The notes under the pieces are model-generated. The model was not told the origin of the DNA. It worked only from the letters and a program-made list of their open reading frames with translations, and ran no database searches. 64,000 nt of DNA from Escherichia coli (GTDB lineage: Bacteria > Pseudomonadota > Gammaproteobacteria > Enterobacterales > Enterobacteriaceae), in assembly GCF_003334305.1 (NCBI RefSeq), contig NZ_QOWS01000008.1, one strand, 5' to 3'. The position numbers were made by a program, and so were the translations under genes. Below are positions 1,633 to 13,542 of this stretch, piece after piece (position 1 is the first letter of the stretch; each line of letters opens with the position of its first letter).

Positions 1633-2016
1633 ATGAAGCTGACCATCATTCGATTAGAAAACTTTAGCGACCAGGACCGGATTGACCTGCAAAAGATCTG
1701 GCCGGAGTATTCCCCTTCCTCTTTACAGGTTGACGATAACCACCGTATCTACGCCGCGCGTTTTAACGAGCGCCTGCTCGCTGCCGTACGGGTAACCTTA
1801 AGCGGCACCGAGGGAGCACTGGATTCCCTGCGTGTGCGGGAAGTCACCCGACGTCGCGGTGTGGGGCAATATCTGCTGGAAGAGGTTTTGCGTAACAATC
1901 CTGGCGTTTCATGCTGGTGGATGGCGGATGCAGGCGTGGAAGATCGCGGTGTGATGACGGCGTTTATGCAGGCACTGGGATTTACGGCACAGCAGGGCGG
2001 CTGGGAGAAGCGTTAA
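1633..2016 (+). CDS. panM: PanD maturation factor PanM/PanZ (YhhK), GNAT fold
   Basis: 127-aa ORF MKLTIIRLENFSDQDRIDLQKIWPEY... at the conserved position between livK and livJ. Confidence 0.85.
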   Translation: MKLTIIRLENFSDQDRIDLQKIWPEYSPSSLQVDDNHRIYAARFNERLLAAVRVTLSGTEGALDSLRVREVTRRRGVGQYLLEEVLRNNPGVSCWWMADAGVEDRGVMTAFMQALGFTAQQGGWEKR

Positions 2017-2057
2017 TCGTCAAGTTTGATTTCAAAAGTGATGACCAACGAGAAATT

Positions 2058-2157
<100 letters not shown>

Positions 2158-2215
2158 TGAAGCAACGTACTCGATATTAGCAATTTGGCGGCAACCCAAA
2201 GTTGCCGATTAATGA

Positions 2216-3319
2216 TTACTTCGCATCGGTTGCCGTGCCGTTGGCGTGCCAGTCAAATACGCCGAACTCAAAGCCTTTCAGATCGCCTTTCTCATCCCAC
2301 GTCAGCGGCCCCATCACGGTATCAACCGAGTTCGCTTTCAGGTATTTGGCGATTTCAGCCGGATCGTCAGACTGATTCAGGCCCGCCTGCAAAGATTGCA
2401 GCGCGGCGTAGGTGGTCCAGACGAACGCGCCACTTGGATCCTGTTTTTTCGCTTTGATGGCGTCAACAATGGGTTTGTTCGCCGGAACCTGATCGTAGTT
2501 CTTCGGCTTGGTCACCAGCAGCCCTTCCGCTGATTCGCCCGCAATGTTAGACAGCGAAACGTTAGCCACACCTTCCGGCCCCATAAACTGAGTTTTCAGC
2601 CCTGCCGCGCGTGCCTGACGCAGGATTTGCCCCATTTCCGGGTGATAACCGCCGTAGTAAACGAAGTCGATATTCTCTTTTTTCAGACGCGCCACCAGCG
2701 TTGAGAAATCTTTTTCCCCGGCGGTGATACCATCAAAGAACACCACGTTAGCATTGCCTTTCTTCAGGCCGTCCTGCACCGCTCGCGCCAGACCTTCGCC
2801 GTATTGCTGTTTGTCGTGAACGATAGCAATACGCTGCGGTTTCACTTTCTCAAGAATATATTTCGCCGCCGTCGGCCCCTGGTCGGAGTCCAGGCCGGTG
2901 GTGCGCAGGATCAGCTGATAGCCACGGGCGGTCAGCTCCGGCGCGGTTGCCGCTGGGGTGATCATTAAAATGCCTTCGTCTTCGTAGATGTCAGACGCAG
3001 GCTGCGTTGATGAAGAACAGAGGTGACCAATCACATATTTAATGCCGTCGTTAACGACTTTGTTCGCCACCGCAACCGCCTGTTTCGGGTCACAGGCATC
3101 GTCATATTTTACGATTTGCAGTTTGTTGCCTTTAATGCCGCCTTTAGCGTTGATATCCGCAACCGCCTGCTCTGCGCCGGTAAACTCCTGGTCACCGTAC
3201 TGCGCAACCGGACCGGACATTGCGCCCACGACCGCGACTTTAATATCTTCTGCCAGAGCCATATTGCTGAATGCCAGCGCGATACATCCTGCCAGTAACG
3301 CTTTACCCTTTATATTCAT
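2216..3319 (-). CDS. livJ: Leu/Ile/Val periplasmic binding protein LivJ
   Basis: Translation [42 protein letters not shown]... (367 aa); start placed at MNIKGK inside the 386-aa ORF; paralogue of livK. Confidence 0.93.
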
Positions 3320-4687: not shown

Positions 4688-5746
4688 TTATTCAGGCGTA
4701 AAGTGGCGTAAATGTTGTACCGTGGCAAGCCACGCTGCCACCCAGCCAATCATCGAGCATACCAGCAGCAATAGCAGGCATTCATCGAACGATAAGCCAT
4801 TGATATCAAACTTCGTTCCGAAAACCTGTGCCACTTCTGCAACCGCCGATGACAAACGCAGTACCAGAATTTCTGACAAAATTAATGACAGCAATGCGCC
4901 AGAAAATCCCAGCAGTGCGCCACCATACAGGAACGGGCGAAGGATGAAACCATCCGTCGCACCAATCAGTTTCTGCACGTTGATGGAGTCACGGCGAGCA
5001 AAGATGCTCAGACGTACGCTGTTGCCGATGACGAGGAACACTGCCGCCACCATCAACACGCCGATCATCGCCGAAACGCGCCCGACCAGCCCGGTCAACG
5101 CCGCCAGACGGGCAAACCAGCTGTCATCCATCCGCACTTCGTCAATGCCGTTAATCTGCGTGATACGATCACGCAGCGTATTGAGTGATTCCGTCCCCTG
5201 AAAATCGAGTTTCGGGATCACCACCGCCACTGCCGGAAGCGGGTTTTCTTCCAGCATATCCAGCGCACCACCAAAACCAGACCAGTTACGGAACTCGCCC
5301 AGTGCGTCTTCACGAGAAAGATAGTTCACTTTCTCCACGCCTTGCTCGGCCTGCAACTGTGCCACCACGCCCGCAGCGGCGTCATCGTCCAGCGTTTTTT
5401 GCAAGTAAACAGTGATTTGCGGTGACGGATAATACTGCGTCGCCGCCTGATTAACGTTTTTGTACACCATATAACAGACGCTGGGCAGCGTCAGGGAGAT
5501 GGCGATAACCATCACCGTTAAAAACGTGGCGAACGGTTTGCTTTTCAGATCCTGCAATGCGCCGTGGAAGGCATAGCGCACCTGTTCGTTGAAAACGTTG
5601 GTTTTACGATTTACCGGTTTTGGCGAGGATTTCGCGCGTTTCGGGGCGTTACGACCGCCGTCGCCAGAGCCGCCGACCGATTTACGGAAGCGATCAAGAC
5701 GCCCGCCAAACTGCCGAATATGATTGATTGCATCGCGCTTATTCAT
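4688..5746 (-). CDS. ftsX: Cell division ABC transporter permease-like protein FtsX
   Basis: Translation [22 protein letters not shown]... (352 aa); start chosen at MNKRD; overlaps ftsE stop by a few nt. Confidence 0.92.
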
Positions 5747-10110: not shown

Positions 10111-12309
10111 ATGTCGACTCCTGACAATCACGGCAAGAAAGCCCCTCAATTTGCTGCGTTCAAACCGCTAACTGCGGTACAGAACGCCAACGACTGTTGC
10201 TGCGACGGCGCATGTTCCAGCTCGCCAACGCTCTCTGAAAACGTCTCCGGCACCCGCTATAGCTGGAAAGTCAGCGGCATGGACTGCGCCGCCTGTGCGC
10301 GCAAGGTAGAAAATGCTGTGCGCCAGCTTGCAGGCGTGAATCAGGTGCAGGTGTTGTTCGCCACCGAAAAACTGGTGGTCGATGCCGACAATGACATTCG
10401 TGCACAAGTTGAATCTGCGGTGCAAAAAGCAGGCTATTCCCTGCGCGATGAACAGGCCGCCGAAGAACCGCAAGCATCACGCCTGAAAGAGAATCTGTCG
10501 CTGATTACGCTAATCGTGATGATGGCAATCAGCTGGGGTCTGGAGCAGTTCAATCATCCGTTCGGGCAACTGGCGTTTATCGCGACCACGCTGGTTGGGC
10601 TGTACCCGATTGCTCGTCAGGCATTACGGCTGATCAAATCAGGCAGTTACTTCGCCATTGAAACGTTAATGAGCGTAGCCGCTATTGGTGCGCTGTTTAT
10701 TGGCGCAACGGCTGAAGCTGCGATGGTGTTGCTGCTGTTTTTGATTGGTGAACGACTGGAAGGTTGGGCCGCCAGCCGCGCGCGTCAGGGCGTCAGCGCG
10801 TTAATGGCGCTGAAACCAGAAAACGCCACGCGCCTGCGTAACGGTGAGCGTGAAGAGGTGGCAATTAACAGCCTGCGCCCTGGCGATGTGATTGAAGTTG
10901 CGGCGGGTGGGCGTTTGCCTGCCGACGGTAAACTGCTCTCACCCTTTGCCAGTTTTGATGAAAGCGCCCTGACCGGCGAATCCATTCCGGTGGAGCGTGC
11001 GACGGGCGATAAAGTTCCTGCAGGCGCCACCAGCGTAGACCGTCTGGTGACGTTGGAAGTATTGTCCGAACCGGGAGCCAGCGCCATTGACCGGATTCTG
11101 AAACTGATCGAAGAAGCCGAAGAGCGTCGCGCTCCCATTGAGCGGTTTATCGACCGTTTCAGCCGCATTTATACGCCAGCAATTATGGCCGTCGCCCTGC
11201 TGGTAACGCTGGTGCCGCCGCTGCTGTTTGCCGCCAGCTGGCAAGAGTGGATTTATAAAGGCCTGACGCTGCTGCTGATTGGCTGCCCGTGTGCGTTAGT
11301 TATCTCCACGCCCGCGGCGATTACCTCCGGGCTGGCAGCAGCGGCACGTCGTGGGGCGTTGATTAAAGGCGGAGCGGCGCTGGAACAGCTGGGTCGTGTT
11401 ACTCAGGTGGCGTTTGATAAAACCGGTACGCTGACCGTCGGTAAACCGCGCGTTACCGCGATTCATCCGGCAACGGGTATTAGTGAATCTGAACTGCTGA
11501 CACTGGCGGCGGCGGTCGAGCAAGGCGCGACGCATCCACTGGCGCAGGCCATCGTACGCGAAGCACAGGTTGCTGAACTCGCCATTCCCACCGCCGAATC
11601 ACAGCGGGCGCTGGTCGGGTCTGGCATTGAAGCGCAGGTTAACGGTGAGCGCGTATTGATTTGCGCTGCCGGGAAACATCCCGCTGATGCATTTGCTGGT
11701 TTGATTAATGAACTGGAAAGCGCCGGGCAAACGGTTGTGCTGGTAGTACGTAATGATGACGTGCTGGGTATCATTGCATTGCAGGATACCCTGCGCGCCG
11801 ACGCAGCAACTGCCATCAGTGAACTGAACGCGCTGGGGGTTAAAGGAGTGATCCTCACCGGCGATAATCCACGCGCAGCGGCGGCAATTGCCGGGGAGCT
11901 GGGGCTGGAGTTTAAAGCGGGCCTATTGCCGGAAGATAAAGTCAAAGCGGTGACCAAGCTGAATCAACATGCGCCCCTGGCGATGGTCGGTGATGGTATT
12001 AACGACGCGCCAGCGATGAAAGCTGCCGCCATTGGGATTGCAATGGGCAGTGGCACAGACGTGGCGCTGGAAACCGCCGACGCAGCATTAACCCATAACC
12101 ACCTGCGCGGCCTGGTGCAAATGATTGAACTGGCACGCGCCACTCACGCCAATATCCGCCAGAACATCACTATTGCGCTGGGGCTGAAAGGGATCTTCCT
12201 CGTCACCACGCTGCTAGGGATGACCGGACTATGGCTGGCGGTGCTGGCAGATACCGGTGCGACCGTGCTGGTAACAGCGAATGCGTTAAGATTGTTGCGC
12301 AGGAGATAA
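10111..12309 (+). CDS. zntA: Zn(II)/Cd(II)/Pb(II)-translocating P-type ATPase ZntA
   Basis: 732 aa; N-terminal Cys-rich CCCDGAC plus GMDCAAC metal-binding motifs, CPC transmembrane motif, DKTGTLT phosphorylation site. Confidence 0.97.
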   Translation: MSTPDNHGKKAPQFAAFKPLTAVQNANDCCCDGACSSSPTLSENVSGTRYSWKVSGMDCAACARKVENAVRQLAGVNQVQVLFATEKLVVDADNDIRAQVESAVQKAGYSLRDEQAAEEPQASRLKENLSLITLIVMMAISWGLEQFNHPFGQLAFIATTLVGLYPIARQALRLIKSGSYFAIETLMSVAAIGALFIGATAEAAMVLLLFLIGERLEGWAASRARQGVSALMALKPENATRLRNGEREEVAINSLRPGDVIEVAAGGRLPADGKLLSPFASFDESALTGESIPVERATGDKVPAGATSVDRLVTLEVLSEPGASAIDRILKLIEEAEERRAPIERFIDRFSRIYTPAIMAVALLVTLVPPLLFAASWQEWIYKGLTLLLIGCPCALVISTPAAITSGLAAAARRGALIKGGAALEQLGRVTQVAFDKTGTLTVGKPRVTAIHPATGISESELLTLAAAVEQGATHPLAQAIVREAQVAELAIPTAESQRALVGSGIEAQVNGERVLICAAGKHPADAFAGLINELESAGQTVVLVVRNDDVLGIIALQDTLRADAATAISELNALGVKGVILTGDNPRAAAAIAGELGLEFKAGLLPEDKVKAVTKLNQHAPLAMVGDGINDAPAMKAAAIGIAMGSGTDVALETADAALTHNHLRGLVQMIELARATHANIRQNITIALGLKGIFLVTTLLGMTGLWLAVLADTGATVLVTANALRLLRRR

Positions 12310-12410
12310 GGCAAACCGATCGCAACATTGAGCGCGATCGGTCCCCTCGCTCCTCTGGGGAGAGGGTTAGGGTGAGGGGAAAAGGCGGCATCGAAGCCAA
12401 TCTTTCCCCA

Positions 12411-12656
12411 TCAACCGCCTTTACGAATCAAATAACGATAAGGCAGTCCATCCGTCTCTTTCGCAACCAGTTCGTGTTCCATAAAGGTACAAAACCCAGG
12501 AATATCGCGGGTCGTCGCCGGATCGTCGGCGATAATCAGTAAAGTTTCGCCAGGCTGCATATTGCGCACGGTTTTGCGCACCATCATCACCGGTTCCGGG
12601 CAGCGCAGGCCAAGCGCGTCGAGTGTGTGGTCAGGGCTGGAAAAGAGATCGGTCAT
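12411..12656 (-). CDS. tusA: Sulfur carrier protein TusA (SirA/YhhP)
   Basis: 81 aa, [28 protein letters not shown]... with the CPxP active-site motif. Confidence 0.93.
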
Positions 12657-12876
12657 TTTCTTCTCATCACTTAAAAAAACGGCGCTAGTTTACGCCCTGT
12701 GAGTCCGTAAGCAAACCAGGTTAACGATTGCGTGAAAATTAACCATTGCATTGTCAACGTAAAGCAGTATCATGCGGCGGCTCGAAAAAAGGGTAAGCAC
12801 GTTATTATGTTAAGATAACAGACGTGTCGTACGTATTGGGTTCCCTCACCCCAATGGTTAATCAAAAAGGTACAAT

Positions 12877-13542
12877 ATGAACGTTTTCTCGCAAACTCAA
12901 CGCTATAAGGCGTTGTTCTGGTTATCGTTATTTCATCTGCTGGTGATCACCTCCAGTAACTATCTGGTCCAGCTTCCGGTCTCCATTTTTGGTTTTCATA
13001 CCACCTGGGGCGCGTTTAGTTTTCCGTTTATCTTTCTCGCGACCGACCTGACCGTGCGTATTTTTGGCGCACCGCTGGCCCGACGCATTATCTTCGCGGT
13101 AATGATCCCTGCGTTATTAATCTCCTATGTCATCTCGTCGCTGTTCTATATGGGTTCATGGCAGGGATTCGGCGCACTCGCCCACTTCAACCTGTTTGTC
13201 GCCCGTATCGCCACCGCCAGTTTCATGGCCTACGCGCTGGGGCAAATCCTCGACGTGCACGTTTTTAACCGCCTGCGTCAAAGTCGCCGCTGGTGGCTGG
13301 CACCGACAGCGTCCACACTGTTCGGTAACGTCAGTGACACGCTGGCCTTTTTCTTCATTGCCTTCTGGCGTAGCCCGGATGCCTTTATGGCTGAACACTG
13401 GATGGAAATCGCGCTGGTCGATTACTGTTTCAAAGTGTTAATCAGTATCGTTTTCTTCCTGCCAATGTATGGCGTATTACTCAATATGCTGTTGAAAAGA
13501 CTGGCAGATAAATCCGAAATCAACGCTTTGCAGGCGAGTTAA
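12877..13542 (+). CDS. yhhQ: Queuosine precursor transporter YhhQ
   Basis: 221-aa membrane ORF MNVFSQTQRYKALFWLSLFHLLVITSSNYLVQLP... Confidence 0.88.
   Translation: MNVFSQTQRYKALFWLSLFHLLVITSSNYLVQLPVSIFGFHTTWGAFSFPFIFLATDLTVRIFGAPLARRIIFAVMIPALLISYVISSLFYMGSWQGFGALAHFNLFVARIATASFMAYALGQILDVHVFNRLRQSRRWWLAPTASTLFGNVSDTLAFFFIAFWRSPDAFMAEHWMEIALVDYCFKVLISIVFFLPMYGVLLNMLLKRLADKSEINALQAS

Follow-up and report, generated by a model that had tools for sequence, protein, structure and literature searches.

Short GC-rich repeats of Escherichia coli that occur dispersed in some 20-30 copies per genome were first named BoxC in the 1990s (~50-56 bp; PMC2267715), and the same enterobacterial family was rediscovered as PIT ('potential intrastrand triplex') by Hoyne and Maher and renamed TMECO in Holder et al. 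2015 (PMC4666352). The published TMECO consensus is 5'-CCCTCNCCC N3-6 GGGNGAGGG N3 GGGNGAGGG, with one mismatched stem pair permitted, and 23 copies in strain MG1655 are listed in Table 1 of the same paper. Number 16 on that list, CCCTCGCCCCTCTGGGGAGAGGGTTAGGGTGAGGGG, is a type A copy with one mismatch and lies at 3,608,684-3,608,719. Here, we describe the one copy of this family found in a 64-kb stretch of E. coli DNA (the window), which lies in the 101-bp spacer (12310-12410) between the convergent genes zntA and tusA. It is settled that the feature is a copy of the known dispersed repeat BoxC/PIT/TMECO, and that it had already been catalogued. The name BoxC is reportedly due to Bachellier, Gilson, Hofnung and colleagues in the 1990s, and the PIT papers of Hoyne and Maher are said to date from 2000 and 2002. 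Our searches for later literature on TMECO found none.

The BoxC core in the window, which is of type A and on the plus strand, occupies 12344-12379. It is made up of a C block, CCCTCGCTC (12344-12352), the 5-nt loop CTCTG, a G block, GGGAGAGGG (12358-12366), TTA, and a further G block, GGGTGAGGG (12370-12378). This is the arrangement of the BoxC family, and 26 of the 27 block positions match the TMECO consensus, with loops of the correct lengths. The core is equated with TMECO no. 16 because of the positions of the gene ends in MG1655 (RefSeq: zntA, 3,608,649; tusA, 3,608,751) and because the alignment of the window with the K-12 locus is free of gaps. The sole difference between the two cores is a C-to-T change at 12351, a strain polymorphism that gives the window allele one extra substitution in the C block. 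Because this T is at position 8 of the C block, a strict search expression for the consensus misses the window copy by one base and finds it when that position is freed, whereas the K-12 orthologue matches the strict pattern. Like other family members, the core is intergenic, lying 35 nt past the stop of zntA and 32 nt short of that of tusA. The MG1655 RefSeq annotation has no repeat feature within the zntA-tusA spacer.

A sequence-only reading of this region had noted two palindromes after zntA, the second of which, CCCCTCGCTCCTCTGGGGAGAGGGTTAGGGTGAGGGG, reads exactly as it was quoted and is found at 12343-12379. It had suggested that this might be a repetitive palindromic element and that other copies of the cccctc...gagggg unit should be sought. 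That suggestion was correct. None of the 5,426 complete E. coli genomes lacks a match to the 48-nt unit 12338-12385. The median number of matching places per genome is 18 and the highest is 34, with 29 in strain 503025, which is 100 % identical to the window over a 221-bp query covering the spacer. Chance GC-rich sequence, with neither structure nor repeat identity, would be the simplest alternative and has in its favour only that the motifs are small. It is almost certainly wrong. The copies are near-identical, and the 20-mer GAGAGGGTTAGGGTGAGGGG did not occur in any of 100 shuffles of the window. Folding of the 111-nt region with both palindromes gives -47.4 kcal/mol for the plus strand (z = -3.6) and -50.0 kcal/mol for the minus strand (z = -4.75), well beyond dinucleotide shuffles. 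The shuffles, the copy counts and the aligned copies together refute a chance origin. Among the MG1655 copies, one (3908495-3908530) lies between the co-directional genes pstA and pstB of the pst phosphate-transporter cluster, and hence not at the end of a transcription unit.

The first palindrome, here called hairpin A, begins 5 nt past the zntA TAA stop and is a perfect 9-bp inverted repeat, one pair longer than had been noted, with a 10-nt loop. Its left arm is ACCGATCGC (12315-12323) and its right arm is GCGATCGGT (12334-12342), with the second unit directly after it. To place the limits of the repeat, all 23 MG1655 BoxC copies were taken with their flanks and aligned together with the window copy. 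Outside the 36-nt core, type A copies have in common a left flank that is approximately A-rich and then g.gc.Cg.tC.GTC, and a right flank, GAA.AG..GCAC. The window flanks, GAGCGCGATCGGTC and GAAAAGGCGGCAT, match both. From the conservation profile of the 24 aligned copies, the full BoxC with family-conserved flanks, C-rich block first, extends over approximately 12329-12393 on the plus strand.

The right arm of hairpin A belongs to BoxC because it is wholly inside this conserved left flank, which the core follows. Other copies have ...CGATCGGTC, ...CAATCGGTC or ...GAACGGTC at the same position. The left arm is outside the repeat and is specific to this locus; ACCGATCGC has no counterpart beside any of the other 22 K-12 copies. 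Hairpin A was rejected as a second palindromic repeat in its own right, since the other copies have no such left arm and megablast finds only 12341-12381 of this region repeated elsewhere in the genome. The two palindromes are one BoxC repeat and a locus-specific complement of its left flank. Sequence outside the repeat thus pairs with the flank, giving an extra perfect 9-bp hairpin that was not seen at the other 22 K-12 copies when their aligned flanks were read, no pairing search being made on them. The sequence-only reading had missed that the two palindromes are not independent. The calculated folding energy of hairpin A alone is -14.1 kcal/mol, or -15.6 kcal/mol in its minus-strand form, and that of the BoxC core on the plus strand is -22.8 kcal/mol. 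Across the window there are 40 perfect 9-bp hairpins, compared with 2.9 +/- 2.0 in shuffles.

The other closely comparable elements are the REPs (PU) and the BIMEs. These are also short GC-rich extragenic palindromes present in many copies, often between convergent genes and in 3' untranslated regions (UTRs), and RNA 3' ends are found at their base. However, the sequences are different, and REPs have no counterpart of the third, purine-rich block of BoxC. Identity with REP was rejected, as the REP consensus ...CTTATC(C/A)GGCCTAC has no match in 12310-12410. Elsewhere, true REPs do fill the zntA-tusA spacer, both in ~10 % of E. coli genomes and in further Enterobacteriaceae. A role in blocking exonucleases has been demonstrated for REPs and is only inferred for BoxC. 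To our knowledge, BoxC has no linked RAYT-type transposase. Within the window, REP signatures were detected only as a pair of inverted REP tails (CTTATCCGGCCTAC-like), at 2073-2086 and 2123-2136.

Published maps of RNA 3' ends were examined for the zntA-tusA spacer and for other BoxC copies. In SMRT-Cappable-seq data for MG1655 grown in rich medium (Supplementary Data 1 of Yan et al. 2018), transcripts from the zntA transcription start site at 3606421 run to a 'novel TTS' (transcription termination site) at 3608685. Transferred to the window by the gap-free alignment, this 3' end is at 12345 on the plus strand, 3 nt past hairpin A. This start site accounts for 184 reads, of which 15 stop at 3608685, 64 stop within 50 nt after it and 38 read through, by a median of 187 nt (Yan et al. 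2018). The 50 nt past the zntA 3' end span BoxC. At other copies, the sheet for M9 medium has an argF 3' end at 289240, 6 nt beyond BoxC no. 4, and a hemB 3' end at 388690, inside BoxC no. 5 (Yan et al. 2018). Term-seq, which recorded 1,175, 882 and 1,053 dominant 3' ends in three conditions, includes ends on or just after BoxC at 3781065(+), the primary end of lldD, 3959467(-), 4231270(-), 632098(+) and 847200(-) (Adams et al. 2021).

On balance, we consider it somewhat probable that the RNA hairpins of this known dispersed repeat form leaky barriers at 3' ends. When transcribed, hairpin A and then the hairpin formed by the C block and G block would behave like REP elements. The stacked hairpins would be an inefficient stop for RNA polymerase, possibly causing it to pause, and the stable 3'-terminal structures would halt 3'-to-5' exonucleases and protect mRNA ends. 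The zntA mRNAs would build up as species whose 3' ends fall at the base of hairpin A and over BoxC, and a sizeable share of transcription from either side would read through and be ended elsewhere, for example by Rho in antisense zntA. With a REP-like barrier of this type, the clustering of zntA ends and the ends seen at other copies could be reconciled with the read-through and with the negative reporter results described below. At the level of DNA, BoxC would on this reading also be a hot spot of local rearrangement, which would account for the large spacer differences between strains. The data establish what the element is, its copy number, how far the repeat extends, where the hairpin arms come from, where the mapped 3' end lies and that the locus is polymorphic; from these we infer a causal role of the hairpins in the 3' ends, through an exonuclease block and not through termination.

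Several observations weigh against this interpretation. The exact zntA 3' end is defined by 15 reads only, and approximately a third of the reads reaching the site (38 of 117) pass it, which does not suit a tight block. SMRT-Cappable-seq does not distinguish a terminated end from a trimmed one, and its table contains no 3' ends at six further BoxC loci. The 3' ends at BoxC copies should be read as individual cases rather than as an enrichment over a matched null. The Term-seq data of Adams et al. (2021) include no 3' end in the zntA-tusA spacer, a gap that could be due to low expression of zntA without zinc. For tusA, no 3' end is present in any of the 3'-end tables searched, and the supplement of the TERMITe paper has no zntA or tusA 3' ends. 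In the reporters of Hoyne and Maher, as summarised in PMC4666352, PIT had neither promoter nor terminator activity and had no effect on RNA polymerase. Finally, TMECO elements have no consistent position or orientation relative to genes (Holder et al. 2015, PMC4666352), which argues against a selected RNA function across the family.

Transcription of the tusA strand is also not confined by the spacer. Bicyclomycin data place a Rho-dependent region on the strand antisense to zntA, at 3607955(-), with a Rho score of 2.93; reads upstream and downstream were 90 and 24 without treatment, compared with 128 and 100 with bicyclomycin (Adams et al. 2021). As this region is antisense in the 3' part of zntA, transcription from the tusA side appears to continue for ~700 nt past the spacer, a further point against a tight block. 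In window coordinates the region is at ~11615 (-). A second Rho-dependent region, MG1655 3606645, transfers to ~10305 (+), and is sense and in the first 200 nt of zntA. The proposal of the sequence-only reading, that the palindromes might double as a bidirectional transcription block or an mRNA stabiliser, is thus borne out in part. Mapping of 3' ends, which it had suggested, places a zntA end at 12345 and many more in the following 50 nt, with Term-seq ends at other BoxC copies, but the read-through, the distant Rho region and the negative reporters speak against a tight block. A role as a block or stabiliser is plausible, though a leaky one.

The spacer itself varies greatly. The same gene pair was compared across 80 Enterobacterales species, as well as in the E. 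coli collection, where 5,399 of the 5,426 genomes gave any match. Of these 5,426 genomes, 4,571 (~84 %) have the short spacer seen in the window. A 268-bp spacer is found in ~10 % (526 genomes) and includes a BIME of three REPs between zntA and ...GCAACATTGAGCGCGATCGGTC-BoxC, with a degenerate left arm, ACCGGTTTC, for hairpin A. In two other E. coli strains, the spacer is at 1322-1589 (locus L003) and 1322-1581 (locus L004). A deletion in strain HM670 has additionally removed the third block of BoxC (GGGTGAGGG). The E. albertii spacer is ~1.1 kb and includes two unannotated open reading frames (ORFs) and one REP. In it, ACCGATTGC ... GCGATCGGT is retained around a 17-nt loop and includes one G.T pair, and both BoxC G blocks are lost. 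Compared with these forms, the haplotype of the window and K-12 is without the REPs, and its loop is 7 nt shorter, giving the perfect stem. The E. albertii ORFs (locus L005) are at 1883-2191 (+), encoding a predicted membrane protein of 102 aa, and at 2251-2748 (-), encoding 165 aa; neither has a match in NCBIfam, PADLOC or Pfam. The region of the 102-aa ORF is also present in E. coli strain SCPM-O-B-8794.

In Kosakonia, several Pantoea and others (nine loci), the zntA and tusA stops abut and the spacer is 0 bp. Hence, all of the E. coli spacer is sequence added in a lineage-specific manner. Citrobacter spacers are 27-103 bp and include REPs, and tandem REP-like units of ~100 nt, in 3-6 copies, make up spacers of 335-659 bp in Superficieibacter, a Raoultella metagenome-assembled genome (MAG) and Klebsiella grimontii. 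The Enterobacter soli spacer has a bare hairpin, CCCTCTCCC-loop-GGGAGAGG. One MAG labelled Pseudocitrobacter (L033) has CCGATCG-N19-CGATCGG directly followed by a consensus BoxC, arranged as in E. coli. This likeness could reflect shared ancestry, gene transfer or a binning error. Upstream sequence of this MAG is also common to E. albertii. The zntA-tusA spacer is hypervariable, and this fits the unusual variability of TMECO loci, which exceeds that of control loci (Holder et al. 2015, PMC4666352).

An alternative to a leaky barrier is that hairpin A is a weak intrinsic terminator for tusA and, together with BoxC, a bidirectional terminator. On the minus strand, ACCGAUCGC-loop-GCGAUCGGU followed by UUUGCCUUAUCU would cause release of the polymerase. 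Stable GC-rich stem-loops between convergent genes, a zntA end just past the stem and a partial U-run on the tusA strand are all features that such terminators have, and the minus-strand hairpin (-15.6 kcal/mol) has a tail with five U in the first 8 nt. Infernal aligns this hairpin and tail with the terminator stem and U-run of the small RNA Hrs13, though weakly. In Rfam (E-value mode, two runs) no spacer hit reaches the gathering score, and Hrs13 is the best, at 19.7 bits against the required 52, a weak match that reflects no more than a terminator-like stem. The zntA 3' end is 3 nt past the same hairpin on the opposite strand, and pairing potential is retained, through left arms that differ, in the short haplotype, E. 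albertii and MAG L033. However, the plus strand is without any U-run, that on the tusA strand is degenerate, and the 10-nt loop is long. A scan for intrinsic terminators (GC-rich stem of at least 5 bp, loop of 3-8 nt, at least five T in 8 nt) found none in the spacer on either strand; the three sites it found in 12000-13000 are all outside the spacer. Minus-strand hairpin A has sufficient T (TTTGCCTT), but fails on its loop. No consensus promoter was found in the spacer either. The sequence-only reading was accordingly right that this is not a textbook intrinsic terminator, and its remark that there is no long T-run holds with the qualification that TTTGCCTTATCT comes after hairpin A on the minus strand. 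The other difficulties are that the BIME haplotype, in ~10 % of genomes, has a degenerate left arm instead of a perfect one, and those given above, namely the third of zntA reads that pass, the Rho region that implies transcription across the spacer, the inactivity of PIT elements in terminator reporters and the absence of a tusA 3' end from the data sets searched. We consider that a terminator is unlikely.

A further explanation is that BoxC acts at the level of DNA only. When single-stranded in the course of replication or transcription, the purine strand would form an intrastrand triplex or a G-quadruplex that leads to stalling, slippage and recombination. The repeat would then be selfish or neutral, without a part in the expression of zntA or tusA, and the RNA ends incidental. 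An intrastrand triplex has been demonstrated in vitro for consensus oligonucleotides, stable by circular dichroism and nuclear magnetic resonance (NMR), and TMECO loci are rearranged more than controls (Holder et al. 2015, PMC4666352). The hypervariability of the spacer, from 0 bp through REPs, a BIME or two ORFs to the partial deletion of BoxC in HM670 and E. albertii, and the lack of a consistent gene context for the family also suit this explanation. In addition, the G strand has a perfect G-quadruplex motif, GGGG-AGA-GGG-TTA-GGG-TGA-GGGG (12357-12379, plus strand, zntA-sense), which on a search of both strands is the only match in the window to the canonical pattern (G3+ N1-7 x3 G3+), a definition based on sequence only. 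For the DNA oligonucleotide, however, an argument from NMR has been made against a G-quadruplex (Holder et al. 2015, PMC4666352).

Other evidence speaks against a role confined to DNA. In vivo footprinting with dimethyl sulfate gave no evidence of a stable triplex, and PIT, a block to DNA polymerase in vitro, was without effect in vivo (PMC4666352). The C-to-T change in the C block of the window weakens the duplex under the triplex, with a DNA fold of -9.5 kcal/mol compared with -11.0 kcal/mol in K-12, where folding of the window allele was computed with Watson-Crick pairs only. The 3' ends that pile up at several BoxC copies are left unexplained, though they are compatible with a by-product. 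We regard the DNA-level explanation as a real possibility and not as the probable one. The rG4-seq paper contains no mention of zntA, tusA or the BoxC G strand. A leaky barrier, a tusA terminator and an effect on DNA are not mutually exclusive.

Two further inverted repeats overlap or adjoin BoxC. A third hairpin, GGGGAAA...TTTCCCC (12376-12409), overlaps the last G run of BoxC and is allele-specific. It is present only in the window allele, as K-12 has AGCCCCT for TTTCCCC (window 12400-12409 compared with 4741-4750 of K-12 locus L002). From the same region, 19 nt (ATCGAAGCCAATCTTTCCCC) are missing from E. albertii and MAG L033. An 8-bp inverted repeat with a 26-nt loop, AAAGGCGG / CCGCCTTT (12381-12422), extends into the final tusA codons and is conserved in K-12. 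The flanking genes carry the names zntA and tusA in the annotation of thousands of genomes, and the locus in the window is that of E. coli. The zntA gene (10111-12309, plus strand, TAA stop at 12307-12309) encodes a Zn/Cd/Pb P-type ATPase, and the convergent tusA gene (12411-12656, minus strand) encodes a sulfurtransferase. Both were placed from the ORF list and RefSeq annotation, for zntA that of identical and orthologous loci.

The leaky-barrier interpretation could be extended to the family, with BoxC elements as general RNA 3'-end-forming modules that work in both orientations, against the negative reporter results of 2002. The zntA-tusA copy would then be reinforced by the locus-specific complement of its flank, with pairing kept via the different left arms of the short haplotype, E. 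albertii and one MAG. We find this extension rather doubtful, and consider it less likely still that the zntA-sense G strand also folds as a G-quadruplex in RNA, in the 3' UTR. The feature was already known, as descriptions of the family go back to the 1990s and a table of 2015 includes this copy, and the function of the element is still unsettled. The useful outcome is therefore the correct label, a BoxC repeat with a locus-specific complement and not a new regulatory device. The spacer is a clear case of turnover of BoxC and REP/BIME sequences between conserved convergent genes whose stops abut in other genera. Public 3'-end maps at several BoxC copies, including the one at zntA, reopen the question of a role in transcript ends or stability, which reporters had earlier answered negatively.

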